Assembly (NCBI GenBank): GCA_963816145.1
Contig: CAWFJP010000005.1
Span: 96,001-160,000 of the forward strand
Length of the DNA: 64,000 nucleotides
Source: an uncultured delta proteobacterium
GTDB taxonomy: Bacteria > Desulfobacterota > Binatia > UBA9968
Direction of reading: 5' to 3'
Part shown: piece after piece, positions 1,793 to 58,578 of the stretch
Layout: each line of letters starts with the position of its first letter
Numbering within the stretch: position 1 is the stretch's first letter
The notes under the pieces: generated by a model
Databases searched by the model: none
Told to the model about the DNA's origin: nothing
What the model saw: only the letters and a program-made list of their open reading frames with translations
Made by a program: the position numbers and the translations under genes

Positions 1793-1826
1793 TTTTCTGG
1801 TCCTTCGGGTTTATCGTGAAGAGGAA

Positions 1827-1909: not shown

Positions 1910-1928
1910 CGAATTAAATTGACATACA

Positions 1929-2873: not shown

Positions 2874-2956
2874 TATTTATGTTCTGTAACCAGGCAGCTG
2901 CAAGATAGCAAGCGATCCTTGATACGACAATGACTCCACGTTAGTGTCGAACTCCT

Positions 2957-8644: not shown

Positions 8645-8659
8645 GATCCATAACTTCAC

Positions 8660-9725: not shown

Positions 9726-10462
9726 ATTATACATTTTCTGTTTATTTTCCGGTGCAGCATGCCGGCCCAGAAACCGTTATCCGAGCATGAGAAGCGTAAC
9801 CTGAGGGCGGTTAAGTTGTTCCTAGACGTTGATCCGAAGCGCTCAGAAGTTGCAAAAGCATTCACTGGACTCGCCTAAGACACTCGACAAACTCTCACCT
9901 CACAAGCAACGCTCTTTCATCAAGCTCTACCACACGGCTTTGGAGGACCCGGAAACATTTCTACTTATTCAAAAGGTCAGGTCAAAAATACTTCGCCCAT
10001 AATCTGGAAATCGCAGTTGATACAGGCTCGCTTATCCGGCGCCTCTCGTAGCTGAGCAAACTGGTCGGCTCGGAAAACCATGATCGGCCGCCCTCCTGCG
10101 ATCTCAGCATCACGGCAGTGCCGGCGATGAAAACGGTTTTGCGTATCCTATCGCCAACTCCGGGCGCGAGGATCAAAGTTTGAGCGCGTTGTCATTGGCT
10201 CCAACCTCGGCCCGCCGGGAAACTCTTCCTCGATCTTAAGGCAGCACAGCGCCACGGCATCGACCCTGCCGGTGAAATCCTTGGCGTTAGGCCCAAGGAT
10301 ATGCCGGTGAAAGGCGTCGATAAAATAGATCTAGTCATCAGAAAAAGCCCGACAGTCAGTCGCTTGCCTTTTGCCAGCTCATTCTTATACATATCTCCCT
10401 CGCAACATAGTCGCACGACCCGCACTGAATCAACTTTCCGCGACTGAGTCCTGGAGAAACGG

Positions 10463-41028: not shown

Positions 41029-41359
41029 GTGGACTACGAGATTGTCTACTACAGCGTGGCTGTACAGCAGCGGATTGTCGAGTTGCCTGACACCTTGGCT
41101 GCCCGATACGTTGTCCTCACGCGTCGGATGGTGGCACTCGGGCCTAATCTTGGTGAACCTCACACTAAGGCGTTTGGCAACGGATTATTTGAGCTACGGC
41201 TCAAGGGAGCGGAAGGCATTGCTCGGGTGTTCTTCTGTACTTTGATTGGCAAGCGCATCGTCATGCTTCATAGTTTCGCAAGAAGTTGGAACGAACGCCA
41301 CTGCGCGAACGCCAGATAGCGAGGCGCGAATGAAGGAGATTAAAAATGCGAACTCATGA
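41029..41359 (+). pseudogene. Type II toxin, RelE/ParE (Gp49-like), frameshifted near the C-terminus
   Basis: GPNLGEPHTKAFGNGLFELRLKGAEGIARVFFC..IVMLHSF; tail ARMKEIKNANS lies in another frame. Confidence 0.82.
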
Positions 41360-41630
41360 TCAATTGGTCGAGAAGCTGAGCGCCGAAAGGCGTGCGATCC
41401 GAAGTCGAACGCATTGAGCGCGAAGAAGGAGCGTTGCTAGACGCCTTGCTCAAGGCGCGTCAACAGGCCGGACTCTACGAGGCGCAGCTTGCCAAACGCA
41501 TGCGTACCCAGGCTCCTACCATGCCCACATGGAGCGCGCGATCGCGACGGCCAAACATTCGCCTTCCATCGTACCGTTCGAAGGTATGTGAAAGCGTGTG
41601 GCAAGCGCTTGGTTCTTCGTGTGGCGTGCG
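41346..41630 (+). pseudogene. HTH (Xre/HigA-like) antitoxin, multiply frameshifted
   Basis: MRTHDQLVEKL / VRSEVERIEREEGALLDALLKARQQAGL..QLAKRM.TQ / KHSPS / ACGKRLVLRVA across frames. Confidence 0.78.
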
Positions 41631-41694
41631 GGAAAGTAGATATTTTATCTCGTGCGTAGTTAGAGATAATGATGAGTTAACGATAAGCAAATAA

Positions 41695-42405: not shown

Positions 42406-42645
42406 ATGTTTGAGAAAGAACGTTTCATTGAAGAATGCCGCGCTGCGCTCAAGGAACGCGACACGCATGCTGCGGTTCGCGAGCTGGTGGCGAGAGCCAT
42501 GAGCGAACCGATGCAGATAGTGCGAGCGCTCGGAGAACCCCGGCGTGCAGGAGTTGAAACGATCTACAAAGCAGACGATCTGACCATCCTCAACCTTTGC
42601 TGGGGACCCCAGATGAAGTTCAAACCGCACGATCACCGTCATGTA
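42406..42645 (+). pseudogene. 5' part of a cysteine-dioxygenase-like cupin gene, truncated
   Basis: GGAGG RBS; DLTILNLCWGPQMKFKPHDHR, after which similarity stops. Confidence 0.7.
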
Positions 42646-42646
42646 G

Positions 42647-43186
42647 CGGGCACAACGTCATCGTCGCACCTCTACGTCGGTTCACGTTTTACACCTTCAT
42701 GGATCCATTTACCTGTACCCGGTCGAATATGGGACGTACACGGAAGGTGGCAACGACCAGCTTCGCCAGAGCGGATCACCTGAGTTTCGTTTCGATCCCG
42801 ATGCTCTCGGCCATCATTTCCTTCCATTTGAAAGAATCCCTCCTGACATCCATTACATGTTGCCGTACGAAAGGCTGATTCTTCCTGTTCCTGACAAGTC
42901 CCAGGACCTTGCTCAGCGTGCGTTACAGCTCGTCTACACTTCGGCGACGAATGCGATTCGGATCGTAGGTGCCGTCATCGCGATTGGATACAGCTTTGCG
43001 CCCTATGACCGCTCGTCCTACAGTCCTCTGTTGCACGCACTCGAACAAACCGATGGACACAGGCTGACAGTCGTTGATCCGAACGCTCACCTGATCGCCA
43101 AGCGACTGCATTCCGAGTTCCCAAGACTCGCCATCGAACCTGTGAGCACCACGTTTTCTCTTTGGATCGATGTGCAAACGCAGTAA
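42647..43186 (+). pseudogene. 3' part of a SIR2-like (SIR2_2) protein gene
   Basis: Frame open from 42647: VLHLHGS ... ILPVPDK ... IAIGYSFAPYD ... VVDP. Confidence 0.7.
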
Positions 43187-43333: not shown

Positions 43334-44335
43334 TTACTTTACTCTCGCCACCAGCTCATCATAGTTCTTCTGCCCGAACTGTCTCTTGCCGGCTTCCAAC
43401 TCGCGGAAGATTTCTAAAAGTTTACTGCTCAGCGGCATTGGCATGCCGAGTTTCTCACCTTCGTTGACGACATAGGCAAGCGTGAAGTCGACTTCGGTGC
43501 GGATCTTTTTTTGGACGTAGCGAAGCGGGCCTTTGCGGTCTTCGGGCTTCCACGTTTTGGCGAAGTTGTTGACTGCTTCTAGCCGTCTTTCAGCGGAGTT
43601 GCGCGGGTGGAAATCGGCTGGGTAGTATTCCGCCAGTTTGATCCAGCGCACACCGAGCGCTTCACCGACGGCGACGACTTCGGCGAAGAAGTCGGCCATG
43701 GCGCGGCGATCGGCTTCGCTCGTGCAGGTCGTCGCCAGTGAGGCGTCGGCTAAAGAACCGTAGTAGCCGAGGCAGGTGTAGGTGAGCTTGCTCCAGAGGA
43801 CACCCAAGATATTGTCGGAGATTTCTGTTTCCATGACGGCGTCGAGGGTTTTGCGCAGATCCTCCAGGCGCGGCGTGGTTTTGCCGTGCAGGTGGCCGAT
43901 GTAAAGGTGGCCGCGGGTGTCGGTCTGGACATGACCGGGGCCGACCTTGCGGCAGCCCATGCGAATCGCCATGCCGACGGTGCGGTCGGCGCCGACTTTT
44001 TCTTGCAGCAGCGGCGGATTGATGCCGTTTTGCATCGAGACGAGCAGGCCGTCGGTGGCGAGATGGGGCAGGACGGTGTTCAACGCATCCGGCGTGTAGT
44101 TGGAGCGCACGGCGATGCAGCCGGTGTCGAACTTGCCGTCGATCTCGTTGGGATAAACGATTTTGATTCTGACGTTAAACGGGCCGTCGGGAACGTCGAC
44201 TTGCAGGCCTTTATCGCGGATCGCGCTGACATGTTCCTTGTCGATGTCGACGAAGGTGATGTCAGCACCGGCGCGCGCCAGTCTGCCGCCGATGATGCCG
44301 CCGATGGGGCCGGTGCCGATGACGATCATGCGCAT
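43334..44335 (-). CDS. Ketopantoate reductase family protein
   Basis: VIGTGPIGG, SMQNG, WSKL, RTEVD; GGAGG RBS. Confidence 0.88.
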   Translation of the reverse strand: MRMIVIGTGPIGGIIGGRLARAGADITFVDIDKEHVSAIRDKGLQVDVPDGPFNVRIKIVYPNEIDGKFDTGCIAVRSNYTPDALNTVLPHLATDGLLVSMQNGINPPLLQEKVGADRTVGMAIRMGCRKVGPGHVQTDTRGHLYIGHLHGKTTPRLEDLRKTLDAVMETEISDNILGVLWSKLTYTCLGYYGSLADASLATTCTSEADRRAMADFFAEVVAVGEALGVRWIKLAEYYPADFHPRNSAERRLEAVNNFAKTWKPEDRKGPLRYVQKKIRTEVDFTLAYVVNEGEKLGMPMPLSSKLLEIFRELEAGKRQFGQKNYDELVARVK

Positions 44336-44620
44336 ATGCACAATACCTCCGCTGCAGATCTTAACTGTCGTCAAAGTATTCAATGGCCGTCGCTGCGTCA
44401 ATAGAGAGAAGCGATTGAATAAAAATGTTCCAGAGCAAAACGCCCGGGTCATCGATACCCAAACGCTAAGAGTCAAATTTGTTGCAGCCCTAGTAAAGCG
44501 CCTGGGCAAGGCGATCTGGACAGGGGGCTATTGGCTTGATAGCCCCAAGTAAATAAAGGACAATTGGCGCTCTTGAGCAGTAGGTCTCATTCCTTTCGAG
44601 TGAGAAATCGGAGGCACCAA

Positions 44621-46096
44621 TTGCAAGAGCCGCAAGTCACAGTGGTCGTTGTCTTACGAGAGAGGTTCAGTTTAACTGAGCGATCCCTCGCTAGCATTTA
44701 CCAAAATACCCAGTTCCCGTTTCACCTCGTTTACGTTGCCGGTAAAGCCCCCTCCCGCGTCCAACGCTACCTTCAACAGGAATCGAGCGAAAAGGGATTT
44801 CTGCTGATAACTACGGAACATCACATATCCCCCAATCAAGCCCGAAATCTCGGCTTGAATGAGGTTAAGACCAAATATGTGGCGTTCATCGATAACGACG
44901 CGTTGGTTGCTCCGGGATGGCTAGAGGCTCTGGTTGGTTGCGCAGAGGAGACCGGCGCCTGGGTGGTGGGACCGCTCTGCTTCATCGGAGAGTTCGGCGC
45001 CGGAGTTGTCCACGTTGCCGGTGGAATGGTCCATTTCAAAGACGAGTCCGGGAAGAAGGTTTTCTACGATGAGCAATATCTCTTTAATACGCCGATTCGG
45101 GAAATAAATGACCGGCTTGTAAGGGGGCGCTGGGACTACGTTGAGTTTCACTGCATGTTGGTGAGAACTGATGTTTTCCAATCTCTGGGACCTTTGGACG
45201 AGCAACTCTTGAGCGTCCACGAGCATATCGATTTTTGTTTAAGCGTAAATCGCGCGGGCGGATCGGTCTACGTCGAGCCAAAATCTGTCGTCACCTATAT
45301 TCCTTCACCTCCTTACGACTGGACAGACCTGCCTTACTTCATGCTGCGATGGAGCGAGGAGTGGAATGTCGTAACCACGAACCGATTCTGTGAAAAGTGG
45401 GGCGTCACTGCCATGGGCTGGCTTGGCAACCAATCGACTCCGGTATCAGAAGACTTATTGGTTAGGTTCGGTAGAGGGCACCGCCGAATCATGACCGGGG
45501 TCAAGTATGTCGCGAACGAAGAGTATCGCGTCTCGCCTACTGAACAAGCTGAGTTGATGATTGCGCTTTTCCAGTCCATGGACCGCGATCAAGTTGATTT
45601 AAGGATGAGCGCGAAAAATGGAGAAGTAGTGGGGTTGCTACCCTCCTTGGGTCCTGACGCCGTTCATCGGCGATTGCCCGAGCTCTTGAGGGAGGCCGAG
45701 TCTCAAGACCTTGGTGTTGCTATTCGTCCCGTGGATAAAGGCGGACAAGAAGGGCTGACATTGTTGCGCTTGGATGACTTAGATCCGTTAACGCTGGAGC
45801 AGGTACAAGATCGCGCGTTCATGATCTTGGAAACCGATCATCGAATCTACCAATGCTGGTATGCGGTGGATAAGAGGCAGCTGCAAAGACTCCCAAGCCT
45901 CGCGAGCAAAATGGCTTCCGACAAAATTGCTGCGACACAGGACCATTTCGTGCCGTTGGCCGGAAGCAGGCGAACACCAACGGCGGACTCGCCGCGAGTC
46001 CGAATCGCCAATGGCAGCGCGGGTCTTCTGATGGCGGCAAACCAACTATCCGATAGATCGATTCAGCTTCTGATCGAAACCTGCATCATCCAGTAG
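44621..46096 (+). CDS. Glycosyltransferase family 2 with a C-terminal RepB-primase-like domain
   Basis: TTG start after GGAGG; ARNLG, FIDND, EHIDFC; C-terminal RLDDLD..AFMILET...YQCWYAV...LAGS. Confidence 0.8.
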   Translation: MQEPQVTVVVVLRERFSLTERSLASIYQNTQFPFHLVYVAGKAPSRVQRYLQQESSEKGFLLITTEHHISPNQARNLGLNEVKTKYVAFIDNDALVAPGWLEALVGCAEETGAWVVGPLCFIGEFGAGVVHVAGGMVHFKDESGKKVFYDEQYLFNTPIREINDRLVRGRWDYVEFHCMLVRTDVFQSLGPLDEQLLSVHEHIDFCLSVNRAGGSVYVEPKSVVTYIPSPPYDWTDLPYFMLRWSEEWNVVTTNRFCEKWGVTAMGWLGNQSTPVSEDLLVRFGRGHRRIMTGVKYVANEEYRVSPTEQAELMIALFQSMDRDQVDLRMSAKNGEVVGLLPSLGPDAVHRRLPELLREAESQDLGVAIRPVDKGGQEGLTLLRLDDLDPLTLEQVQDRAFMILETDHRIYQCWYAVDKRQLQRLPSLASKMASDKIAATQDHFVPLAGSRRTPTADSPRVRIANGSAGLLMAANQLSDRSIQLLIETCIIQ

Positions 46097-46110
46097 ACGA
46101 GGGGAGACTC

Positions 46111-48351
46111 ATGAACGCTGTGTCCGACAATCCGATCGAGGGCGCGAATCACCCAGGACTGCATGTGGCGATCAGCGCGACGTTTGTGGCCGAGCCAGTG
46201 GAAGAGCCGCTTCAATGCTGGCTGCGGGAGATGGGTGTCACCGCCTCGATTTCATTCGCGCCGTACAATCAGGTGTTTCAACAACTACTCGACCCATCGA
46301 GCTTACAATCAAGAAACCGCAATGGACTGAATGTTGCCTTGGTCCGCCTTGAAGATTGGCACCGAAAGCCTTTCCCCGCTCCCACTGATGAGTTTCTATT
46401 GCTAGACCCAGTTGAAAAATTGCAGCGGAACGTTGTCGATTTCCTCGCCGGGGTTGTCGAGCTCAGGAAGCGGCACGCCGCTCCGTTAATTGTGATCTTA
46501 TGCCCGCCTACCTCCTCGATCTCAGATTCCCCTCGGGAATTCAACACATTGCGTGAAGCGGAAGAGATGCTTGCCTTAGAGCTTTCAAAAATGAACGGCG
46601 TTGAGATTGTGACGAGCGATGCGTTCTTATCTCTCTATCCCATTGCCGACTATCACGACCGTCATGGAAGTCTATTGGCCGACATTCCCTATACACCGCC
46701 TCTATATACGATCTTGTCGATGATGATTGCCCGTAAGGTGCACAAGTTAAAACTTCCGCAGCGCAAGGTAATCGTGCTCGATTGCGATAATACTTTGTGG
46801 AGCGGTGTTGTCGGCGAGGACGGCTGTGAAGGGATAAGTTTCGAACCGTTTCGAAAAACTCTCCAGGAATGCGTACTAGAACAACAGCGCCGAGGCATGC
46901 TGGTTGCTTTATGCAGCAAGAACGATGAAAAGGAAGTGTTGCAGGTCCTCGATACGCGGAGCGAAATGCTGCTAAAAAGAAGCGATCTCGTCGGCTGGCG
47001 AATCAATTGGAAATCGAAGTCGGAGAATCTGACTTCGCTGTCGCAAGAACTTGGTCTTTCCTTGGATAGTTTTATATTCATCGACGACGATCCAATGGTA
47101 TGCGCCGAAATCCGTGCAGGTTTGCCGGAAGTTCTAACTCTATTACTACCGCCCGTGCCAAGCGAAATTCCGGCCTTCCTGCGCCATGTTTGGGTCTTTG
47201 ATCATGACTCGTTTACCGACGAGGACCGGCAACGCACGAAACTCTACCGAGAGCATTTCATGCGTGAACAGGTTCGGCGTGAATCGACATCGCTCAAGGC
47301 CTTTCTCACCGATCTTGATTTGAAAGTGACAATTGCAACATTGGCCGATTCCGAAGTCGACCGGTCGGCCGAACTGACCATGAGAACCAACCAATTCAAT
47401 ACAACAACCCAACGACGAACACCTTTGGAAATGAAGCAGCTCCAGAGTTCCGCATCCAAAGATTGCCTGGTCGTGCATGCGAAGGACCGGTTTGGAGATT
47501 ACGGTCTTGTCGGACTGATTACGTGTCAGATCGAGAATGACAGCCTGCTTATCGATTCTTTCATGCTCAGCTGTCGTGCGTTGGGTCGTGGGGTCGAGCA
47601 CCGAGTGATAGCTCACCTTGGCTTGCTTGCGCAGCAGCGCCAATTGACAACCGTCGATATCATTTGCATCCCCTCGCCCAAAAATTTTCCTGTCTTCGTG
47701 TTTTTGAAAAGCCTGCCGGGCGTCGTTTGTACGTCTTTCCCCGATCGCCAGGTTTTTCACCTCTTCGCGGCGACCGCGGCATCAGTCAGATACTCTCCGA
47801 ATGAGCCTATAGGCCATGACATCGGCCGAGTCGAAGATAGTGACGATACCGGTTCCAGGCCGAATGACCACGTTGAGATGGCAACCCTTAGTACGTTTTT
47901 GGCTACCGTCGCAGAGCGGCTGCGGGATGCTACATCGATTCACGATCGGTTTGCTCATGTCCGTTTGCGTCAATCCGCAGTTCCGAGCGCTATCCCGCCT
48001 CGCACCCCTGTGGAATCCGCGGTCGCTGCGATCTACTGCGACTTGTTGGGCCTCGACGAAATCAGTGTTGACGATAGTTTTTTCAATTTGGGTGGTCACT
48101 CCCTGATCGCAATGCAGGTTCTTTCCCGATTGAACACTGAGTTTGATGTCGAGCTCACCCCTATGTTGCTATTCACCAGCAGGTTCACGGTGGCGGAACT
48201 AGCAGACTCGGTTGTGCAGCAACAACTCAAGAATATGAGCTCAGATGATATAAGCCAGATTTTTCAGAAACTGTCGGAACTTACTGATCAACAAGCCGAC
48301 AGCCTCACTTTCAGCGGCTTATCCGATACTATCTTGCCGGTGCGCAAGTAG
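46111..48351 (+). CDS. FkbH-like HAD-IIIC glyceryl transferase/phosphatase with C-terminal carrier domain
   Basis: LDCDNTLW, CSKN, INWKSK, FIDD, RTNQFN, DRFGDYG, LSCRALGRGVE, ACP FFNLGGHSL. Confidence 0.92.
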   Translation: MNAVSDNPIEGANHPGLHVAISATFVAEPVEEPLQCWLREMGVTASISFAPYNQVFQQLLDPSSLQSRNRNGLNVALVRLEDWHRKPFPAPTDEFLLLDPVEKLQRNVVDFLAGVVELRKRHAAPLIVILCPPTSSISDSPREFNTLREAEEMLALELSKMNGVEIVTSDAFLSLYPIADYHDRHGSLLADIPYTPPLYTILSMMIARKVHKLKLPQRKVIVLDCDNTLWSGVVGEDGCEGISFEPFRKTLQECVLEQQRRGMLVALCSKNDEKEVLQVLDTRSEMLLKRSDLVGWRINWKSKSENLTSLSQELGLSLDSFIFIDDDPMVCAEIRAGLPEVLTLLLPPVPSEIPAFLRHVWVFDHDSFTDEDRQRTKLYREHFMREQVRRESTSLKAFLTDLDLKVTIATLADSEVDRSAELTMRTNQFNTTTQRRTPLEMKQLQSSASKDCLVVHAKDRFGDYGLVGLITCQIENDSLLIDSFMLSCRALGRGVEHRVIAHLGLLAQQRQLTTVDIICIPSPKNFPVFVFLKSLPGVVCTSFPDRQVFHLFAATAASVRYSPNEPIGHDIGRVEDSDDTGSRPNDHVEMATLSTFLATVAERLRDATSIHDRFAHVRLRQSAVPSAIPPRTPVESAVAAIYCDLLGLDEISVDDSFFNLGGHSLIAMQVLSRLNTEFDVELTPMLLFTSRFTVAELADSVVQQQLKNMSSDDISQIFQKLSELTDQQADSLTFSGLSDTILPVRK

Positions 48352-48371
48352 GGCCAAGCGGCAGAAGTTGC

Positions 48372-49559
48372 GTGATGGAACCGTTGAACGTGATTCTATT
48401 TTCTGTCGGATCGCATGGTGATGTGTCACCGTTCCTTGAGATTGGACGCCAGCTCAAAGAGCGAGGCCACGAGGTCAAGCTCTTGAGCCATTGTTGTTAC
48501 GAAGAAAAAGCTAAACGAGCGTCGTTAGGATTCGTCTCCGTCGACAACCCTGATGAATACCGAGAATTCATCGCCGATCAGCATCTCTTGAATGGACCTC
48601 AGGGAATACCAGAATTCATAAGAAGACATTCATTATCTAAGATTGTCAGACATTACGGGCTGATCGCACAAGCGTGCCAATCACAAAATACCGTTCTCGT
48701 AACTCGTGATTTGTTCGACACTACCATGCGCTTGGCTGCTGAAAAGAGCCACTTGCCCCTGCGCTGGATCTTCGGAAATCCTAGTCAAGCGACCACATGG
48801 AAGCTCCGACAGCAATTGTTCACCGATGTGCTACGACCTGACATCAATCGAGCTCGCGCCGCTCTGGGCCTGCAGAGCGGTGTGGAAAGAGGTGCGCGGC
48901 TTGAGTATCCATCGGGCGCAATCGCGTTATGGCCCGAATGGTTTGCCAGGGTTGACTTTGACTTGCCGTTCCATGTGACCCCGGTCGGTTTTTTTCGCGA
49001 CGACGATGGCAATGAGGGCGAGATTCCGGCGGTTATTCAAAACGCCGTGGATATATCTGATACGTCGATTCTGGTCACGGCGGGCACGGGAATGTATTTA
49101 GATGCGGGATTCTATGCCGCGAGCGCTGAAGCCTGTCGAATGTTGAATGTTCTAGGAATTCTGGTGGCACAGCACAAGGAGCAGCTACCGAATGATTATC
49201 CTGGTTGCCTGAGTTGGGTCGGCTATCTTCCTTTCGGCAAGCTGATGCCGCAAGTAAAATTGGTGATTCACCACGGGGGTATGGGGACCCTGGGGTGCGC
49301 GATGGCTGCAGGTGTTCCTCAACTTGTTCTCCCAAAAGGGGCAGATCGTCCGGACAACGCCTTGCACTTGAAGAAGCTGCGGATCGCGGACTCCTTGCCT
49401 CCGCCAAAATGGAAGCCTGCAAGCATAGCGGACGCCATGCTTCGGTTGTTGCGTTCGCCAGAGGTTGCCGAGAACTGCCGGGCACTAGCCGGTCGATTGA
49501 AAAATACTGACGGCGCCGCCGCGGCCTGTGATCTCATCGAGCAACCTGTACACAGTTGA
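48372..49559 (+). CDS. GT-B glycosyltransferase (GT1, RhlB/sterol-GT-like)
   Basis: GSHGDVSP, RGHEV, IHHGGMGT, AGVPQL, DRPDNA. Confidence 0.9.
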   Translation: MMEPLNVILFSVGSHGDVSPFLEIGRQLKERGHEVKLLSHCCYEEKAKRASLGFVSVDNPDEYREFIADQHLLNGPQGIPEFIRRHSLSKIVRHYGLIAQACQSQNTVLVTRDLFDTTMRLAAEKSHLPLRWIFGNPSQATTWKLRQQLFTDVLRPDINRARAALGLQSGVERGARLEYPSGAIALWPEWFARVDFDLPFHVTPVGFFRDDDGNEGEIPAVIQNAVDISDTSILVTAGTGMYLDAGFYAASAEACRMLNVLGILVAQHKEQLPNDYPGCLSWVGYLPFGKLMPQVKLVIHHGGMGTLGCAMAAGVPQLVLPKGADRPDNALHLKKLRIADSLPPPKWKPASIADAMLRLLRSPEVAENCRALAGRLKNTDGAAAACDLIEQPVHS

Positions 49560-49770
49560 TTTATCTACTCTTAACTTTGGCGAATCTCACACGCAATGTT
49601 TAATCGACCTGGACTAGAGAAAACTTTCTGTTTGCGGTGCACGGTTTTGGATTGCGACCCTATCGTGAAAATCTCGGCTGGTAAATTAGCGCCGCGGCCC
49701 TTGAAGAATTGTAGATTAATGAAATATTACCGCCTGAAGTAGAAGCCAGGTCTCGCTGAAAGGATAGCAG

Positions 49771-50748
49771 ATGAAGCGAATTATATTTGCAATTGCCGTC
49801 GCTACGATGAGCCTTAACGGGGTCCATGCGGCTGACCGGATTCGTATTGGCTATAGTTCGATCAGCGGCGCCTATACGCCGATCTGGGTCGCTCATGATG
49901 CCGGCTTCTTTGCCAAGGAAGGATTGCAAGACGACATCATCTTGATTCCCAGCGGCACTCAGCTGGCTCAGGTCACCGTTGCCGGCGAGATCGATATCGG
50001 CTCGCTCAACGGCAGCTCGGCGATTGCGGCGGCGCTGTCGGGCGCCGATCTGAAAATCATCGGCAACTCGGGCAACAAGATGGTCTTTTCGCTCTATGTC
50101 CGACCGGAGATCAAAAACGTCGACGGTATGCGCGGCAAGAAAATAGGCATCACCCGCTTCGGTTCGGCGCCGGATATTTCGGTGCGCTACGCGCTGCGCA
50201 AGTTCAATATCAATCCAGACAAAGACTTGACGTTGATCCAGCTCGGGTTTATGGCGACCGTAGCGGCCGGACTCCAAGGCGGCTCCATCGAGGGCGGCGT
50301 GGTGTCGCCGCCGACGCAGTTCGCCATCGACAAGGCTGGTTTCAAAGAATTGATCAGCATCACCGACATGAATTACGCCTTTCCCAATCCGGCGCTGGTG
50401 GCGGTGGGCTCGATCATCCGCAGCAAGCCCGACGTCATCAACCGCTTCATGCGCGCCTACACGCGCGGCGTGCACAAGGCGCGCACCGACCGCGAGTTCA
50501 CCTATAAATCAATGGCCAAGTACACCAAAATCAACGATCAGGTCGTGCTGCAGAAGGCGTACGATTTCTATATGACCAAAGTTTTGGAGAATACCCCGGC
50601 GGTGAACATGGCCGGGGTGGTCAATGTACTCGAAGATCTGGCCAAGACCGTGCCGGCCGCCAAGACCGCCAAGCCGGAACAGTTCGTCGACATGCGCTTT
50701 CTCGACACCCTGGAGAAAAGCGGTCTGTTGAAAGAGCTGTATCCGTAG
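49771..50748 (+). CDS. ABC-type substrate-binding protein, NMT1/THI5/SsuA-like
   Basis: Signal peptide; WVAHDAGFFAKEGL, RGKKIGITRFGS. Confidence 0.88.
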   Translation: MKRIIFAIAVATMSLNGVHAADRIRIGYSSISGAYTPIWVAHDAGFFAKEGLQDDIILIPSGTQLAQVTVAGEIDIGSLNGSSAIAAALSGADLKIIGNSGNKMVFSLYVRPEIKNVDGMRGKKIGITRFGSAPDISVRYALRKFNINPDKDLTLIQLGFMATVAAGLQGGSIEGGVVSPPTQFAIDKAGFKELISITDMNYAFPNPALVAVGSIIRSKPDVINRFMRAYTRGVHKARTDREFTYKSMAKYTKINDQVVLQKAYDFYMTKVLENTPAVNMAGVVNVLEDLAKTVPAAKTAKPEQFVDMRFLDTLEKSGLLKELYP

Positions 50749-50761
50749 ATCGCACAAAACA

Positions 50762-50840
50762 TGAGGGGTAAAGGGTGAAGGGTTAGGGTAAAACGTTTTC
50801 AAGACCGATTCGCCTCACGCCTCACCCTTTACCCCTTACC
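50762..50840. repeat. Inverted repeat with heptamer tandem arms
   Basis: TGAGGGGTAAAGGGTGAAGGGTTAGGG ... CGCCTCACGCCTCACCCTTTACCCCTTA. Confidence 0.8.
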
Positions 50841-50849
50841 ATCTTCACC

Positions 50850-51896
50850 ATGGCGGACTGCTCACCCATCGCTGTAAGTCCCGCCGCGCAAGCTGAATCG
50901 CCGCCCGCCAGTTGGTTCCAGCGCCACAAGGGCAAACTCTGGTGGCTGCATAGTATTTATGCGCTGCTCTTCGGTGTCGGCATCATGTGGCTTGGGGCGC
51001 GCAACTACAACTTTTTGCGCGTGACGGTTTTTCACGTCGGGTTTATCTGGCTTTCCAGTTTATATCTGCCCAAGCTCTTGAACCATCCGCGTCTGTCGCC
51101 GCGATGGGCCGGGCGATTGCGCTTGGTTGTCAATTATTTCAACAAGAATTTTTATCAGCAGGTGCTGTTTTTCATCCTGCCGATCTACTACGGCAGTGCG
51201 ACTGTTTCGTCCGGCAATGTTATTTTCGTCTTGTTTTTGACGATCTCAGCGGTGCTTTCGACGCTCGATGTCGTCTACGATCGTCATCTGTCGGTTCGGC
51301 GCGGCTTGGCTGCGCTTTTTTTCTCTTTCAATCTATTTGCCTTAATCAATGTCATGCTGCCGGTATTGTGGAGCATCGGTAACAACTGGGCGACCCGTGT
51401 CAGTGCCGTGTTTGCCGCTCTAGGTTTTGTCACGATCTTTCATCCTTTCTCGCAGGTCAGATACCGGCAATATGCCGTCGCGGTCGGCACGGCGCTGTTG
51501 CTTTTGGTTCTAGTCGAGTTCGGGCGGCCGTATATTCCGCCGGCGCCATTGCGAGTTGTGGCCGCGCAGTTTGGCAGCGACTATCAAACAGAAACGAAAT
51601 CGGTCGATCCGGTGTTGACCGAAGTGGAGCCCGGTCGGGGGCGCCGGCTGCATGTTATCACGCCGATCAAGGCACCGCTGGGACTTGAAGAAACTGTGCA
51701 GCACCGTTGGCACAAAAACGGCAAGTTGGCGTGGGCTTCGCCGTTCATCCAAGTGACCGGCGGCCGTGAACAAGGATTTCGGCTGTGGACGAACTATCTC
51801 TTCGATGTCATCGAGCCCGGCGCTATGGTGCGGGTCGACGCCGTAACCCAAGGCGGTCAATTGATCGGCCGCGCCAGGATAAAAGCGGCACGCTAA
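50850..51896 (+). CDS. Membrane protein with DUF5924/DUF2914-like C-terminal domain
   Basis: Multiple TMs; YIPPAPL, APLGL, HRW, GGREQGFRLWT, GQLIGR. Confidence 0.75.
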   Translation: MADCSPIAVSPAAQAESPPASWFQRHKGKLWWLHSIYALLFGVGIMWLGARNYNFLRVTVFHVGFIWLSSLYLPKLLNHPRLSPRWAGRLRLVVNYFNKNFYQQVLFFILPIYYGSATVSSGNVIFVLFLTISAVLSTLDVVYDRHLSVRRGLAALFFSFNLFALINVMLPVLWSIGNNWATRVSAVFAALGFVTIFHPFSQVRYRQYAVAVGTALLLLVLVEFGRPYIPPAPLRVVAAQFGSDYQTETKSVDPVLTEVEPGRGRRLHVITPIKAPLGLEETVQHRWHKNGKLAWASPFIQVTGGREQGFRLWTNYLFDVIEPGAMVRVDAVTQGGQLIGRARIKAAR

Positions 51897-51993
51897 GCAC
51901 CCCCTCGTGCGTCCCCCCGGTTCTTCCAGGTTGGAAAATTTGACTTATATCCGTGCCTATGAATAAGTTGATCGCTCTAGTAGGTTCCAAGTC

Positions 51994-52959
51994 ATGATGC
52001 AAACGCTAATTTCTTTTGTCTTTGTCATTGCGCTAGGTCTGCTAGGCGGTGCCGATCTCCCGGCGCAGCAGCGCATCGCTGTCAGTTATCCCGGCATTGC
52101 CGGTTACAACATTCCTTTTTGGGTGGCGCTCGACGGCGGTCAGTTCAAGAAGGCGGGGCTGGATGTCGATGCGGTTTTGATCTCGGGCGGGTCGAAAAGC
52201 ATGCAGGCGTTGTTATCCGGCGGTCTCGACTTCGCGCATGTCAGCGGCGGCGTGTCGGTGCAGGCTAATCTCAACGGCGCCGACGTGACGATCATCGGCA
52301 CCGGATCGAATTCGATGTCCGCCGGTGTGATCGCCGCCAAGGAGATCAAATCGTATCAAGACTTGAAGGGCAAGAAAGTCGGCATCGCCAGCTTCGGCGG
52401 CAACAACGATATCGGCTTTCGCTTTGCCTTCAAGAAAAATGGCATCAATCCCGACAAGGACGTGACCTTCCTGCAATTGGGCGGCGAGCGCAACCGATTG
52501 ACGGCGTTGGAGCGCGGCGCGATATCGGCGACGATTATGTCGCCGCCGGGGCTGTTTGTCGCTGAGGCCCAGGGTTACACGCGTCTGGGTGATCTGAGCG
52601 CTATGGGGATGCGCTATCCCGAGTTGTCGATTATCACGCGCAAGCGCGACTTGAAGGAACGGCGCGATCTGGTGCGCCGTTATCTGCGCGCCTTCGTCGA
52701 AGCGGTGCGGGTGATGAAGACCGATCGCGAGGCGACGCTGCGGGTGATCGAAAAATACATTCACGTCGGCTCGAAGACGGAGGCAGTGAAGACTTACGAT
52801 TACTTCGTCAAGAGCACCTCGGATACGCTGCGCACCGAACGCGATGGGATTGCCGAGTTTCTCGCGACTCTGGAGGCAACCAAGCCGGGTGTGGCGAAAC
52901 GCAATCCCAACGAGTTTATCGACGAGTCGGTATTGGAAGAGGTGTTGAAGGGGCGGTGA
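51994..52959 (+). CDS. ABC-type substrate-binding protein, NMT1/THI5/SsuA-like
   Basis: Signal peptide; FKKAGLDV, DLKGKKVGIASFG, INPDKDV. Confidence 0.88.
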   Translation: MMQTLISFVFVIALGLLGGADLPAQQRIAVSYPGIAGYNIPFWVALDGGQFKKAGLDVDAVLISGGSKSMQALLSGGLDFAHVSGGVSVQANLNGADVTIIGTGSNSMSAGVIAAKEIKSYQDLKGKKVGIASFGGNNDIGFRFAFKKNGINPDKDVTFLQLGGERNRLTALERGAISATIMSPPGLFVAEAQGYTRLGDLSAMGMRYPELSIITRKRDLKERRDLVRRYLRAFVEAVRVMKTDREATLRVIEKYIHVGSKTEAVKTYDYFVKSTSDTLRTERDGIAEFLATLEATKPGVAKRNPNEFIDESVLEEVLKGR

Positions 52960-54071: not shown

Positions 54072-55727
54072 ATGACCCAGCCATCCGTCAATCCCATCAC
54101 CGTCGAGGTCGTGCGCAATGGCCTGGCGCATATCGCCAACGAAATGGCGACGGTGCTGCGCAAGACTTCCTACAACATGATGATCTACGAGGTGCGCGAC
54201 TACTGCGTCGGCATCGTCGATCCGGACGGCAACATATTGTCTCAGAACTTCGGCGCGCTGCCGATCTTTCTCGCCGATCTGGGGCCTGCCATCGTCGACG
54301 GCGTGCGCATGCATGGGCGCAACGGCTTTCTTCCGGGCGACGTGCTGATCATGAATCATCCCTATGTCTGCGGCCAGCATTTGAACAATGTCGTGGTTTA
54401 CACGCCGTTTTTTCATGAAGGTGAGCTGGTGGCGTTTCTCGCCGTGCGCGCGCACTGGATCGATATCGGCGGCCGGCCGATGGGTTTCGGTTTCAGCGGC
54501 ACGCGGGAAGTCTACGAAGAAGGCTTGCAGTTCCGCTCGCTCAAGCTTTACCGCGGCGAACAGCCCAATCAAGAAATATTTCAAATCATTACCGACAATG
54601 TGCGTTTCGCCGAATCTTCCCTCGGTGATTTGCGCGCGCAGATCGCCGCTTGCCGGGTCGGCGACCGCGGTCTCGGTGCGCTGGTGAAGCGGTATGGCTT
54701 GGACGCGTTCTTGACTTGCGTGCGAACCATCTGGCAGCAGTCCGAGGCTTTGGCACGCGAGCAGGTGGCGCGCATCAAGCCGGGTTCGTACGCAGCCGAA
54801 GCGCTATTCGATAGCGACGGCGTCAACCTCGACATACCGGTGCCGCTCAAAGTCAAAGTGGATGTTGCCGGCAGCGACATGACCATCGACTTCTCCGAGA
54901 TCAGCGAACAGGTGGCGGGCTCGATCAACTCCGGCGAGTCGGGTGCGGTAGCGGCGGCGCGGGTGGCATTCAAATCTCTAGTCGCACCCTACTCGCCCAT
55001 CGACGAGGGCTGCTTTCGAGCGCTGAAAGTTGTTATTCCGGAGGGCAAAATCTTGAGCGCCACGCCGCCAGCGCCGGTCGGCAACTGGAGCCGGACCTTG
55101 CCGACCGTGATTGATTTGATTTTTCGCGCACTGGCGCCGGCGATGCCCGAGCGTATTGCAGCGGGGCATAAGGGCGATATGGGCGGTTACGCTTTCTTCG
55201 GCGTCAACCCCAAGACCGGCCGACGTTTTCTCTGCCAGACGATCATGGGCGGTGGCTGGGGCGGACGGCCCCATGAAGACGGCGAAAATGCCACGGTGTC
55301 GATGTGCCAAGGCGACGTGCAAAATGCCCCGGTGGAGTTGCAGGAGATTTATTATCCTGTGCTCATCGAGCGCCAACAACTGCGCGAGGGTAGCGGCGGC
55401 GCCGGCAAATTTCGCGGCGGCCTCGGCCTCGAAGTCACGGTGCGCGTGCTGTGCGATGCTTCCACTAATATTAACGTCGAGCGCCAGCGCACCGCGCCGT
55501 GGGGCTTGTTCGACGGCGAATGCGGCGCGAAGGCTCAGGCGCTGGTCAGACAATCGCCCGACGATCCCGGTGCCTGGCTGACCAAGAAGCCCAACTATCC
55601 GTTGAAGCCGGGAGGCAGCGTAACTTTCTTTACCGCCGGCGGGGGCGGTTATGGTACTGCCAGCGAGCGCGGTGATGAATTGGTTGAGCGGGATCGGCGC
55701 TTGGGTTATGTAATAAATCCCCCTTAA
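54072..55727 (+). CDS. Hydantoinase B / oxoprolinase family protein
   Basis: PGDVLIMNHPY..GQHLN, AHWIDIGG, EEG, GGWGG, GSGGAGKFRGG, GGGGYG. Confidence 0.93.
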   Translation: MTQPSVNPITVEVVRNGLAHIANEMATVLRKTSYNMMIYEVRDYCVGIVDPDGNILSQNFGALPIFLADLGPAIVDGVRMHGRNGFLPGDVLIMNHPYVCGQHLNNVVVYTPFFHEGELVAFLAVRAHWIDIGGRPMGFGFSGTREVYEEGLQFRSLKLYRGEQPNQEIFQIITDNVRFAESSLGDLRAQIAACRVGDRGLGALVKRYGLDAFLTCVRTIWQQSEALAREQVARIKPGSYAAEALFDSDGVNLDIPVPLKVKVDVAGSDMTIDFSEISEQVAGSINSGESGAVAAARVAFKSLVAPYSPIDEGCFRALKVVIPEGKILSATPPAPVGNWSRTLPTVIDLIFRALAPAMPERIAAGHKGDMGGYAFFGVNPKTGRRFLCQTIMGGGWGGRPHEDGENATVSMCQGDVQNAPVELQEIYYPVLIERQQLREGSGGAGKFRGGLGLEVTVRVLCDASTNINVERQRTAPWGLFDGECGAKAQALVRQSPDDPGAWLTKKPNYPLKPGGSVTFFTAGGGGYGTASERGDELVERDRRLGYVINPP

Positions 55728-55806
55728 TCCACCTTTTTCAAAGGGGGAAATTTGTCCTATGGATCTGTGTTCCCCTCTTTGAAAAAGAGCGGCTAGGGGA
55801 GATTTT
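55718..55806. repeat. CCCTCTTT..AAAGAG double-hairpin repeat overlapping a stop codon
   Basis: AATCCCCC..CCTTTTTCAAAGGGG...CCCTCTTTGAAAAAGAG..GGGGAGATTT. Confidence 0.72.
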
Positions 55807-55829
55807 CCGAACAGGTTGCGGAGGGATGT

Positions 55830-56936
55830 ATGGACGAACAGCAAGTATTCCAAAACCGCTTGACACAAGTGCGCCAGGCGATGCGCGAGCAGGGCCTGGA
55901 AACTCTACTCGTGCATGATGGCGGCCGGCATAATTTTTTGCGCATGAACTATGTCGCCTATCTCACCGACTTCATCAGCGTCGGTCCGGACACGATGCTG
56001 GTGATCCCGCTGGACGATGCGCCGATGCTTTATCTCGCGCCGGCTTGGGATATCGCCCGCGCTCAAGAAGAGTCCCAGGTGAAAGACGTGCGGCCATTCC
56101 AAGAGTTCTGGCCATGGCTCAATAATGCCGGCAAGGTTGGGCTCATCGGCCGTGAGGCGATGCATGTCGGACTGTATGACGAAATCGTCAAGACGGTGGG
56201 TCAAACGCCGGTCAACGCCAAGGACATCATCGAGACCATGGCGCGCTGCAAAGGGCCGTTTGAGCTGGAGCGCATGCGGCGTGCCGCGGCGATCGCCGAT
56301 GCCGGTGTTAGCGCATTGCATCAAGATGCCCGGCCCGGCCTGAAAGAATACGAGCTCGCTGCGATCGTCGAATATGAAATGCGATCCCGCGGCGCCGAAG
56401 ATAATTTCGGCATGGTGGTCGCCAACAATCATAATCAAGCGCTGCATCCGCCCACCGATCGTGTGGTCCAGCCGGGGGACATCATCATCGGCGAAATCAC
56501 ACCCTGCATCGGCGGTCTGTTCGTGCAGATCTGCCGCACCGTCGTGTTGGGCGAGCCGGCGCCGGTGGTGCGCGAGAAGTATGCGATCCTGCACAAAGCG
56601 ATGGGCCTTGGCATGGCGGCCGCGCAGACCGGCGCGCCGGCGAGCGCGGTGGCCAAGGCGATCAACGGGACGTTCATTGAATATGGCTACGAGCAGTACT
56701 GCCGGCCGCCGTTCATGCGCGTGCGCGGCCATGGTCTCGGCTGCGGCTCGTCGGCGCCGGGCAGTTTGGAAGACGACAACAAAACTAAATTGGCAGAGGG
56801 GATGACCTTCATCATTCATCCCAATCAATATATACCTGAGACCGGTTACCTGACGCTCGGCGATACCGTGGTGATGGGCAAGACCCGGGCGGAGTCGCTG
56901 ATGAAATCGTCATGGGATCTCTACATTAAAGATTGA
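55830..56936 (+). CDS. M24-fold protein (creatinase/Xaa-Pro peptidase family, non-canonical ligands)
   Basis: VAYLT, PGLKEYE, QICRT, RGHGLG, GMTFIIHPN. Confidence 0.85.
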   Translation: MDEQQVFQNRLTQVRQAMREQGLETLLVHDGGRHNFLRMNYVAYLTDFISVGPDTMLVIPLDDAPMLYLAPAWDIARAQEESQVKDVRPFQEFWPWLNNAGKVGLIGREAMHVGLYDEIVKTVGQTPVNAKDIIETMARCKGPFELERMRRAAAIADAGVSALHQDARPGLKEYELAAIVEYEMRSRGAEDNFGMVVANNHNQALHPPTDRVVQPGDIIIGEITPCIGGLFVQICRTVVLGEPAPVVREKYAILHKAMGLGMAAAQTGAPASAVAKAINGTFIEYGYEQYCRPPFMRVRGHGLGCGSSAPGSLEDDNKTKLAEGMTFIIHPNQYIPETGYLTLGDTVVMGKTRAESLMKSSWDLYIKD

Positions 56937-56955
56937 GGGTTAATGAAATGTAACC

Positions 56956-57037
56956 GCTGGAACGATTGGAACGGCTGGAACCATTGGAACCTTAGGCGCG
57001 ATTGTTCCAACCGTTCCAATCCTTCCAATAGTTCCAG
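56956..57037. repeat. Inverted repeat with 9-bp TGGAAC tandem arms
   Basis: CTGGAACGATTGGAACGGCTGGAACCATTGGAAC ... GTTCCAACCGTTCCAATCCTTCCAATAGTTCCAG. Confidence 0.82.
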
Positions 57038-57064
57038 GTGGTTTAAGATTGTTTAGGTGATCAT

Positions 57065-58225
57065 ATGATTTTCGGAAGACATTCCGTATTAAAAAGGGGT
57101 TGTTCGACTTGGGATCCGGCGCAGGTGCCGCAGGCGGAGTTTCAAGCGCGCCTCGATGCCGTGCGCCGGGAGATGGCGCGGCGCGATCTCGACGCGCTGG
57201 TGATCTACGGCGATAATTATTCCTTCGCCGATATTTGTTATCTGACGAATTACTTTCCCAAAGTGCGCGGCGGCATTACGATTGTGCCGCGCGACGGCGC
57301 GATTTCCATGCTGCTCAATATCGGCAGCCGCGACGTGCCGTTCGCCAAGACGCTCACCTGGGTCGAAGACGTGCGCGCGTCGAACCAGGTAGGCGGCGAC
57401 GGCGCCAAGATGATCCAGGAGAAAGGCTTCGAGAAAGCCAAGATCGGTTTGGCCGACTCCGGCCATGGGTTTCCGCTGCCGCAGCTCGAAGATATGAAAA
57501 ACGCGCTGCCCAGCGCGAGTTGGCAGAATTGCGATGACATCGTCGCGCCGCTGCGTGTGACGAAGACGGCGCGGGAACTCGGCGCCATGAGCGAAGCTGG
57601 GCGGCTGCTAAGCGAAGTTTGCGCCGGTGCGGCGGCTTTCATCAAGCCGGGGCGCAAGGAATATGAAATCGTCGCCGACATCGACCGATTGGCGCGCGAT
57701 AAGGGCGCCGAAGATATTCGCATCCTCGCCGGCGAGCGTCGGTTAAACCCGCCGAGCTTTAAACAAACAGCCAGCATCGGCGCCCATTGGGCGCTTTATC
57801 TCGCCGTGCAGCATGAGCGCTACTGGGCCGAGGCGGGGCGGACATTTATTCTCAACAGCGATGGCAAGATTCAGTCGGCCTATGACCGAGCGCAAGCGAT
57901 CGTTGGCGCGATGGCGAAACAGCTAAGGCCCAATGGAAACGTTGCCGCCATCGATGAAACGGCGCGCAAGGAGCTTGGCGAGTTTTACGCACAGGCTTCG
58001 GTTTATGGCCTCGCCAACGGCATCGGCCTGAATCAATGGGAAGCGCCGTTCTTGAACCAGAGCGACGCACAAGAAGTGGGAGCAGCGACGGTGGGGGCGA
58101 CGACGTTGAATGAAAATATGACGCTGGCGCTGCGCGTGACTATCGAGAGTGAAGGGAAGATCGTGCTGTACGGCGATAGTTTTCAGGTGACGGCGAGCGG
58201 CGCGAAGTCGCTGGTGGGGGATTAA
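57065..58225 (+). CDS. M24-fold protein, degenerate active site
   Basis: LDALVIYG, YLTN, PGRKEYE, YWAEAGRT, ANGIGL. Confidence 0.82.
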   Translation: MIFGRHSVLKRGCSTWDPAQVPQAEFQARLDAVRREMARRDLDALVIYGDNYSFADICYLTNYFPKVRGGITIVPRDGAISMLLNIGSRDVPFAKTLTWVEDVRASNQVGGDGAKMIQEKGFEKAKIGLADSGHGFPLPQLEDMKNALPSASWQNCDDIVAPLRVTKTARELGAMSEAGRLLSEVCAGAAAFIKPGRKEYEIVADIDRLARDKGAEDIRILAGERRLNPPSFKQTASIGAHWALYLAVQHERYWAEAGRTFILNSDGKIQSAYDRAQAIVGAMAKQLRPNGNVAAIDETARKELGEFYAQASVYGLANGIGLNQWEAPFLNQSDAQEVGAATVGATTLNENMTLALRVTIESEGKIVLYGDSFQVTASGAKSLVGD

Positions 58226-58271
58226 AGTTCACCTGATGGCCGAGTCTTCCCTCAGATTCCTTCCCCCTTGA

Positions 58272-58403
58272 GAGGCTGTGTCGTAATGATCAAATGCCCC
58301 ACATCTGTCATCCCGAGCGCAGCGAGGGATCTCGTGTTTTCAGCCACATACGAAGAAGAGATTTCTCGGCTTCACCTCGAAATGACAGTTGCGACACAGT
58401 CTG
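58272..58403. mobile_element. 132-bp MITE, copy 1 (TSD TGA)
   Basis: Ends AGGCTGTGTCGTAA / TTGCGACACAGTCT (12/14 inverted); TGA on both sides; inside a CCTTCCCCC..GGGGGAAGG hairpin. Confidence 0.85.
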
Positions 58404-58578
58404 TGACGGGGGAAGGCTAGGATGGGGGTGCTGCGCACGTTAGTGATATTCTCAAGCACCCCCACCTCTGTCCTCCCCCGTCGAGGGGGAGGATGTAATA
58501 TTTCGGAGGGCCGGTTGAGAAACGGTGTCATTGATAAACTGTTGCAGGTTATTTTTCAAGATTGATTCGAAAGGCTCC

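Follow-up and report, generated by a model that had tools for sequence, protein, structure and literature searches.

A gene in the stretch of DNA analysed here (the window: 64,000 nucleotides (nt) of contig CAWFJP010000005.1, from an uncultured delta proteobacterium of the UBA9968 lineage) encodes a GT2-family glycosyltransferase whose C-terminal part is homologous to the catalytic domain of RepB', the primase of the IncQ plasmid RSF1010. Primases of the AEP superfamily, to which RepB' belongs, are known as enzymes of replication, repair and mobile elements. We read the primase-like part of the protein, which we call the tail, as a domesticated, non-catalytic module that is derived from a primase and has been kept in a biosynthetic cassette, and our confidence in this reading as a whole is evenly balanced. 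It would represent a natural example of the fold of a replication enzyme that was exapted as a probably non-catalytic module and maintained for a long time in a carrier-protein cassette.

Residues are numbered throughout on the 510-aa protein (P0001) of the mechanically called open reading frame (ORF). The start of the gene is probably the TTG codon at 44621, because a ribosome-binding site lies just ahead of it and the homologs begin at the same residue (N-termini MQEPQ or LQDPQ). The gene and its parts are the following.

44564..46096, plus strand: ORF as called mechanically, 510 aa.
44611..44615, plus strand: GGAGG ribosome-binding site, 6 nt ahead of the likely TTG start.
44621..46096, plus strand: likely extent of the gene for the GT2/RepB'-like fusion protein, 491 aa from the TTG.
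44630..45352, plus strand: GT2 (GT-A) glycosyltransferase domain, residues 23-263, above the cut-offs of PF00535 and PF13641.
45353..45532, plus strand: conserved extension or linker, WSEEWN...FGRGHRRxxTG, residues 264-323.
45533..46054, plus strand: homolog of the RepB'-type primase catalytic domain, residues 324-497 by hhalign, followed by 13 residues and the stop codon.

The GT2 domain is complete and looks active. It was recognized by PF00535 (residues 27-144, E 1.9e-11, 44.6 bits with a gathering cut-off of 23.3) and by PF13641 (residues 23-263, E 6.5e-10, 39.8 bits with a cut-off of 27), and its DxD motif, D110-N111-D112, is unchanged in 12 of 12 diverse relatives. The best NCBIfam likeness of the protein is to the mycofactocin glycosyltransferase model, below threshold, and the GT2 part had no match in the PDB at E <= 1e-3. 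The invariant columns of the linker are R262-W267, R307 and G312. The linker is mostly absent from short GT2-only relatives, in which the match to the GT2 model mostly stops near position 262-291 of 301. An earlier reading of the window by a model, made from the sequence only, had described a complete GT2 domain and then a tail of about 180 aa reaching the C-terminus, and this organization was found. The segments that it quoted are all present (VAIRP at 385-389, LLRLDDLD at 400-407, QVQDRAFMILETDHRIYQCWYAV at 413-435, FVPLAGS at 462-468 and PRVRI at 477-481). Its coordinates, 45550-46096, were otherwise right, but their start is off the codon boundary, in a frame that contains stops, and the domain begins about 17 nt earlier.

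The relationship of the tail to primases was not visible in ordinary domain searches. Direct scans with Pfam and NCBIfam gave noise only (an HbpS-like match at E 0.19 and an addiction-module model at E 0.09). The Pfam RepB_primase model, PF16793, stayed below significance on this protein, matched two of 12 homologous tails (best E 0.0012) and found nothing at E <= 10 in the whole genome of the window. PF16793 is too far from this clade, and the homology therefore had to come from profiles. When the single sequence was compared with the PDB by phmmer, RSF1010 RepB' was the sole match at E <= 10 (3H25/3H20; E 0.024 and 0.055). A profile of 12 tails again matched RepB' as the sole significant entry (E 5.5e-5; the next at 0.3), and 15 full-length homologs share the conserved tail. 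The same profile matched 328 of 1.84 billion representative proteins at E <= 1e-3; among the best 150 of these 328, PF16793 was present in 86, PF22448 also in 16, and GT2 in six. By hhalign, the tail profile aligned to a set of 22 stand-alone RepB-like proteins of about 300 aa with a probability of 99.8 % (E 8.4e-30, 165 columns), beginning at the very N-terminus of the catalytic domain, and this stand-alone set in turn matched both domains of RepB' (E 2.3e-21). Because the PDB matches are specific to RepB', the hhalign probability is 99.8 % and the stand-alone set itself matches RepB', it is virtually certain on these comparisons that the tail is homologous to the RepB' catalytic domain (RepB_primase, AEP superfamily). 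The AEP relationship suggested by the sequence-only reading was thus upheld by profile comparison.

A protein of this kind might also be produced by chance similarity, by an assembly chimera or by the recent insertion of a plasmid fragment, and the failure of PF16793 on this protein and in the whole genome would fit such an origin. We give this explanation a negligible probability and regard it as already refuted by the hhalign result, the specific PDB match, the junction-spanning contigs, purifying selection and a deep monophyletic clade of fused domains. All but three of the 121 closest GT2 relatives (118) have the tail, and this also settles the conservation in homologs on which the sequence-only reading depended. 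Contigs from other public runs span the GT2/tail junction without insertions or deletions (45302-46213 and 45293-45878), the whole tail is free of frame-breaking differences in the contigs of other studies, and the same architecture occurs on many independent contigs. An assembly chimera is excluded by the junction-spanning contigs and the 118 tailed relatives, and a fusion peculiar to this genome by the many fused homologs elsewhere. The sole indel is a single nt at 46101, in the 14-nt spacer from the stop of the fusion gene (46096) to the FkbH start (46111); it is missing in contigs of three of the four runs compared and represents non-coding strain variation. In four ortholog pairs (synonymous divergence, dS, of 0.42-0.70), the ratio of nonsynonymous to synonymous divergence (dN/dS) was 0.28-0.43 in the tail and 0.11-0.14 in the GT2 domain. 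The tail is therefore under purifying selection, which is 2-3.5 times more relaxed than that on the GT2 domain.

The active site of RepB' provides a standard with which the tail can be compared. Passages of PMC8567376 assign nucleotidyl transfer in RepB' to D77, D78 and D134, report that the mutation R145A strongly lowers its activity, and describe Tyr62. Passages of PMC5862659 give Gln as the motif II residue of RepB'-like AEPs and the motif IV Arg as essential. The corresponding positions in the window are the following; the IRP and Asp-pair rows are from the phmmer alignment.

45722..45730, plus strand: I387-R388-P389, equivalent to RepB' I63-R64-P65; P389 is invariant in 16 homologs.
45773..45778, plus strand: D404-D405, equivalent to the catalytic D77-D78 (AEP motif I), kept here and not family-wide.
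45848..45859, plus strand: Y429-Q430-C431-W432, equivalent to RepB' YQAW (AEP motif II, with Gln as in the RepB' family), conserved.
45920..45922, plus strand: D453, a possible match of RepB' D134 (motif III), with the loop alignment uncertain by one column.
45953..45964, plus strand: P464-L465-A466-G467, equivalent to R145-LAG (motif IV), with the essential Arg replaced by Pro.

The order of the motifs (IRP, hhxLDDL, ETxxxxYQxW and xLAG) is thus that of RepB', as the sequence-only reading had described it, and its remark that the Asp pair is kept while SPGN and the Arg have diverged is supported by D404-D405, DHRI and P464. Q430 is the equivalent of RepB' Q106. In the segment before the Trp, ETDHRIYQCW stands here and ETSPKNYQAW in RepB', SPKN being replaced by DHRI. 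A386 stands where RepB' has Tyr62, the residue before IRP. For motif III, phmmer pairs D453 with D134, whereas hhalign puts the Asp of the family opposite K454; this column is Asp in 21 and a gap in 32 of 118 relatives.

The active site has decayed in the family as well as in this protein. Counts in close relatives refer to the 118 tail-bearing proteins among the 121 closest GT2 relatives. The first Asp of motif I is kept in 94, the second in 52 and both in 49; the motif IV Arg is kept in 32, the Asp pair and Arg together in 20, and the SPGN Ser in 16. The structural Gln, Trp and Gly are kept in 111, 112 and 116. By comparison, the non-fused matches (n=138) keep the two Asp in 130 and 123, the SPGN Ser in 119 and the motif IV Arg in 80, with a gap in 39. 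Among 12 diverse members of the fused family the Asp pair was found in three, and the invariant tail residues are W432 and G467. The second motif I Asp is Gly or Asn in five of 16 close homologs. The same genome encodes two paralogs of the fusion protein, and both have lost the pair (motif I LNRLP and VETRE, with NR and ET at the Asp positions).

The second domain of RepB', a helix bundle (PF22448, PriCT-1), is absent. PF22448 had no match on this protein, whose sequence ends 13 residues past the catalytic domain, and the fused proteins in general stop a median of 2 residues past it. A hidden Markov model of the helix bundle built from the stand-alone set matched none of 122 GT2-relative proteins and none of 46 GT2-bearing proteins in the wider set, and 67 non-fused proteins did match. 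The catalytic domain of RepB' without its helix bundle is described as inactive in passages of PMC8567376, the helix bundle being required for dinucleotide formation. Because the helix bundle is absent, Arg145 has become Pro and the active site has decayed family-wide, the tail is very unlikely to be a working primase or to prime DNA. The suggestion of a domesticated primase fold is thus supported. That the tail is non-catalytic in this protein altogether is a further step, which the residues make likely.

The retained residues are the basis of a different explanation, in which the tail is a ligand-binding or catalytic nucleotide module. It could bind a nucleoside triphosphate (NTP), a nucleoside diphosphate (NDP)-sugar or a phosphorylated substrate, or could transfer nucleotidyl or phosphoryl groups in a newly acquired reaction on behalf of the GT2 domain, for instance by making or holding the sugar donor or by activating glycerate. 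This protein has D404, D405 and possibly D453, nearly all fused relatives have the motif II Gln and Trp, and the 20 relatives with both the Asp pair and the motif IV Arg carry that Arg in a very canonical RLAGSKN. In addition, stored Pfam annotations place PF16793 beside PF00535 in 7 of 120 relatives listed. However, the substitution of the second Asp by Gly or Asn in close homologs weakens the option of a repurposed nucleotidyltransferase for this clade, and the pair is lost in 69 of the 118 and also in the two paralogs of this genome, whose operon partners are the same. Here Pro has taken the place of the Arg, few relatives keep the SPGN Ser, and selection on the tail is much more relaxed than on GT2. 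An essential active site is not normally so variable among orthologs sharing one operon. We therefore consider a nucleotide module unlikely. A more restricted form concerns the members with the Asp pair, Arg and RLAGSKN and perhaps this protein, which has three Asp: their tail would be a re-tooled enzyme or nucleotide site of AEP fold that works on a small molecule, for example by nucleotidyl or phosphoryl transfer to a glycerate-derived intermediate or by making or channelling an NDP-sugar for the GT2 domain. This form is less probable again; if true, it would make the tail the first domain of AEP fold to act in natural-product chemistry instead of on nucleic acids.

It is also conceivable that the tail keeps the nucleic-acid-binding side of the primase and binds single-stranded DNA or RNA for regulation or localization. 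The RepB' catalytic domain binds the ssiA hairpin according to passages of PMC8567376, and the tail retains this domain from its N-terminus. On the other hand, RepB' Tyr62 is replaced by Ala, and the gene lies in a biosynthetic operon; no replication or mobile-element genes were attached to the cassette in the loci examined. The fused domains are also mildly acidic (median isoelectric point (pI) 5.8, net charge -2, n=31) and the stand-alone domains basic (median pI 8.6, n=51), a weak argument in that the group of 'long' primase-like proteins described below is acidic too. This explanation appears very improbable.

The origin of the tail was examined in a tree of 100 domain sequences (31 fused, 18 'long' and 51 stand-alone), made by a quick search and with an arbitrary root. 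Its input was 168 domain matches, of which 17 near-duplicates were dropped by a 4-mer filter and 51 non-GT2 proteins of less than 270 aa as possible fragments. The 31 fused domains make up one side of a branch (SH-aLRT 99) against the 69 others, and because of this the tree is consistent with a single capture event. Within the fused clade the branches are longer and reach 2 changes per column. The nearest rows outside it are P0024 and P0036, proteins of about 600 aa. These two, P0045, P0049 and others (about 570-640 aa) have an unannotated N-terminal part of 280-330 aa, then RepB_primase and RepB_primase_C; the N-terminal part gave no Pfam match at E <= 0.01 and is not a GT2. P0024 matched the tail profile at E 8e-30 with 34 % identity over 180 aa. 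Both P0024 and P0036 keep the Asp pair and RLAGS.NVK, and P0036 also an intact ETSP. On these comparisons the fused proteins are one old, large clade, and metagenomes of soil, wetland and sediment contain more than 100 sequence clusters of it. P0095 (749 aa), a distant fused member, has an extra N-terminal GT2 before the GT2-tail unit and SG instead of DD in motif I.

The strongest functional clue is the linkage of the tail-bearing form to a gene for FkbH-ACP. FkbH-type proteins load glycerate from 1,3-bisphosphoglycerate onto their own carrier as glyceryl-S-ACP. In the window, the fusion gene is the first gene of a tight three-gene operon with the following neighbours.

46111..48351, plus strand: FkbH-ACP gene (HAD-IIIC/FkbH with a phosphopantetheine carrier domain), second gene of the operon.
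48372..49559, plus strand: GT-B glycosyltransferase gene (EryCIII/MGT-like GT1), third gene of the operon.
43334..44509, minus strand: ketopantoate-reductase-like (ApbA/PanE) gene, upstream and divergent.

The FkbH-ACP protein scored 281.8 bits with TIGR01686 (cut-off 146.65) and 56 bits with TIGR01681 (cut-off 35.75), its PP-binding domain was found at E 1.5e-14 (54.4 bits), and the carrier Ser motif G661-G662-H663-S664 is invariant in six homologs. By family match and carrier motif it is predicted to be a glyceryl-loading protein. Neither the tail nor P0017 had an entry in the ESM Atlas.

The search for the same fusion and its neighbours in other genomes revealed a large old family with a shared FkbH-ACP cassette. 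The genome of the window carries three GT2-tail cassettes, each with a fusion gene followed by an FkbH-ACP gene. In the two others (C14:269228-272937, L017, and C30:160823-165340, L018), the fusion proteins are 45-49 % and the FkbH-ACP proteins 41-46 % identical to those of the window; the C30 cassette has a DUF6817/HD gene in between and a GT4 transferase. In the tree, the C14 and C30 copies lie in a different sub-clade from the window copy, each grouping with metagenome sequences. These positions argue against a recent duplication and suggest separate acquisitions or an old duplication. In the C14 cassette the GT1 gene is reduced to a C-terminal remnant at C14:273006-273345, detected by tblastn in two frames (residues 269-322 and 324-382), which looks like a pseudogene. 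Sister metagenome-assembled genomes (MAGs) of delta proteobacteria and one Chloroflexota MAG contain the same pair of fusion and FkbH-ACP genes; in the Chloroflexota locus, two adenylation-thiolation (A-T) didomain genes lie upstream and a DUF6817 gene stands between the pair. The conserved order of the cassette is a nonribosomal peptide synthetase (NRPS) module or an A-T protein in some loci, the GT2-RepB-like gene, in some an HD/DUF6817 gene, then FkbH-ACP and the GT-B transferase.

Metagenome contigs were scanned with patterns of the GT2 subfamily, which gave 80 loci: 18 long forms with the tail, 59 short GT2-only forms and three cut by a contig end. Of the 18 long forms, 12 had a full-length FkbH homolog downstream, among them all eight with at least 3 kb of downstream sequence. 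Of the six long forms without FkbH, three lie on contigs that stop at most 853 nt past the gene and three have just a DUF6817/HD gene in the remaining 906-2,025 nt. No FkbH was found near any of the 59 short forms, including the 22 with 3 kb or more of downstream sequence. The short forms are instead accompanied by GT4, ABC-exporter, GT28-like and histidine-phosphatase genes. In all ten metagenome loci that extend past FkbH, a GT1 or GT4 gene follows it. NRPS parts are frequent near the long forms, such as a condensation-adenylation-thiolation-thioesterase (C-A-T-TE) protein in L022 and A-T didomain proteins in L015. A one-module NRPS of this C-A-T-TE type (1405 aa, 87-89 % mutually identical) lies between the reductase and fusion genes at L012:2691-6896, L016:3307-7518 and L022:722-4936, and the ketopantoate-reductase-like gene borders the cassette in orthologous loci, sometimes with the NRPS module between. 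Two loci were unusual in the fusion gene itself. L025 has two copies on the same strand (2-988 and 1582-3399), with a DUF6817 gene between them, ahead of FkbH. In L035, the GT2 and primase-like parts are in separate adjoining ORFs (149-1243 and 1247-1876), a natural split or a frameshift.

This linkage bears on a further explanation, that the tail is a generic structural or oligomerization domain which serves stability, dimerization, or membrane or partner-independent positioning. On this view it is not specifically related to FkbH-ACP, and the linkage reflects just the common descent of one operon. A single origin means that the link to FkbH could be inherited; the small number of invariant residues in the tail resembles a scaffold, and its dN/dS is intermediate. 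However, the GT2-tail and FkbH-ACP genes stay adjacent while the GT1/GT4, DUF6817/HD and NRPS parts vary. The adjacency also holds across genomes labelled delta proteobacterium and Chloroflexota, and short GT2 relatives without such a domain occur in other contexts. A purely structural role seems to us about as improbable as a nucleotide module.

In the reading that we prefer, a domesticated module without catalysis, a RepB'-type catalytic domain (the C-terminal 175-190 residues) would have been captured once by a GT2 protein without its helix bundle. Selection on most of the nucleotidyl-transfer residues would then have been lost, and with it priming. FkbH-ACP would load a glycerate unit as glyceryl-S-ACP. 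Many loci also encode the C-A-T-TE module, which could join this unit to an amino acid and then set the product free, or else an A-T didomain protein; the GT2 and the GT-B transferase would add sugars to give a glycosylated small molecule derived from glycerate. The tail would adapt the GT2 domain to a carrier-bound acceptor by docking to FkbH-ACP or to an NRPS T domain, or by holding the tethered substrate. That the tail specifically couples GT2 to FkbH-ACP or a carrier protein in this way is a tentative proposal, held with less confidence than domestication itself. If it is right, the protein may be a case of how a tailoring enzyme acting in trans is matched to its carrier protein.

Several points weigh against this reading. 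The linkage of tail and FkbH may be one inherited event; the fused clade is monophyletic, so that the 12 of 18 long forms and the zero of 59 short forms with FkbH are not independent counts. D404, D405 and possibly D453 are kept here, as are the Asp pair and Arg with RLAGSKN in the 20 relatives, and these retained residues leave room for some members of the family to retain an activity that depends on a metal or a nucleotide. A dN/dS of 0.3-0.4 in the tail fits a binding domain and does not identify its partner. The AEP fold of the tail is predicted by homology, and its contact with FkbH-ACP is putative. The genome of the window has no ortholog of the one-module NRPS (best match 48 %), and the window cassette may be a trimmed version, with a correspondingly trimmed pathway. 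Finally, no RNA run was listed for the operon, and two metatranscriptome runs from one sample bearing the operon DNA contained next to none of the operon's words, which is no evidence either way.

Comparison with known systems places the tail by descent in the RepB_primase family; by the residues and domains recognized here, it fails the defining features of a working RepB' primase (helix bundle, motif IV Arg, conserved motif I and replicon context). RepB' (3H20, full length; 3H25, catalytic domain with ssiA DNA; PF16793; PrimPol-PV1 supergroup) is the sole solved structure that it matches. The two share the order of motifs, the motif II Gln (in the RepB' family according to passages of PMC5862659) and coverage of the catalytic domain from its N-terminus. 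Unlike RepB', the tail has no helix-bundle/PriCT-1 domain, has Pro, Ala and DHRI for Arg145, Tyr62 and SPKN, and has an Asp pair that is not conserved in its family. It also sits behind a GT2 domain in a biosynthetic operon rather than in a plasmid replication or mobilization module. The stand-alone RepB_primase proteins (about 300 aa) and the group of about 600 aa share an EQAxLM...FDL start and YQCW with the tail. Unlike the tail, they keep the Asp pair, SPxN-like residues, RLAGSxNxK and the helix bundle. The short GT2-only relatives are 47-56 % identical in the GT2 part and share YxVF[ILV]DND and [YF][FY]xxRWS[ED]xW. Unlike the fusion, their ORFs are about 300-420 aa with no primase-like tail, and their surroundings are free of FkbH.

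The second gene of the operon resembles FkbH-type glyceryl-ACP systems (TIGR01686), which supply starter or extender units to polyketide and NRPS pathways, in its FkbH/HAD-IIIC core and the carrier GGHS motif. FkbH reportedly occurs in clusters of the bafilomycin, tetronate and aeruginosin types. Unlike the known systems, FkbH-ACP is here paired with two glycosyltransferases, one with a primase-derived domain, and our literature search found no described pathway with such a pairing. The X-domain of glycopeptide NRPSs is a degenerate condensation domain that works as a recruitment platform. It may serve as an analogy of principle only, that of a dead enzyme fold which joins a tailoring enzyme and a carrier-bound substrate; its fold and origin differ from those of the tail.

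The literature search likewise found no description of a fusion between a glycosyltransferase and a RepB/AEP primase. Of the RepB' family patterns, three are stated in passages of PMC5862659, among them a stand-alone primase with PriCT-1 and forms that follow a MobA-like relaxase; none of these has a glycosyltransferase and the word 'glycosyl' does not occur in the paper, although its supplementary architecture lists might include such a fusion. The architecture is visible in databases, as the stored annotations mentioned above indicate, and has apparently not been remarked on before. More than 100 proteins labelled just 'GT2 family glycosyltransferase' have a recognizable second domain. The family also points to small uncharacterized pathways of FkbH-ACP and two glycosyltransferases, often with a one-module NRPS, whose products may be of a glycosylated glycerate type.

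Within its own phylum the tail was found in the genus of the window only, in five of the 31 genomes searched including its own (E <= 1e-3), and in none of 400 other genomes at E <= 1e-8. Further tail-bearing relatives are labelled Chloroflexota and Rokubacteria. This patchy distribution would be that of a transferable cassette. DNA near-identical to window 44400-49600 (66-87 % of the sampled words) was present in 20 public runs from 19 studies of soil, wetland and sediment, and such habitats widely harbour both the organism and its cassette.

The window has further features outside the cassette. A stand-alone A-T didomain gene (10371-12428; AMP-binding and PP-binding) lies 32 kb from the cassette, in a region of lower GC content (8001-12428; 0.51, with about 0.57 elsewhere). 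On the other side of the reductase gene from the operon, a Gp49-like toxin-type ORF (41029-41319, plus strand; PF05973, E 2.7e-16) is followed by a 100-aa ORF (41392-41694, plus strand) without a Pfam match, and the two are probably a toxin-antitoxin pair. The 41-43.3 kb region otherwise contains short ORFs of at most 125 aa, and the two of them that were scanned (42406-42783 and 42857-43186) had no family match. Downstream of the operon, genes for NMT1/THI5-like binding proteins (49771-52959) precede a cluster at 54072-60615 with hydantoinase/oxoprolinase B and A genes and two genes for creatinase/prolidase-type M24 peptidases, apparently unrelated to the fusion.

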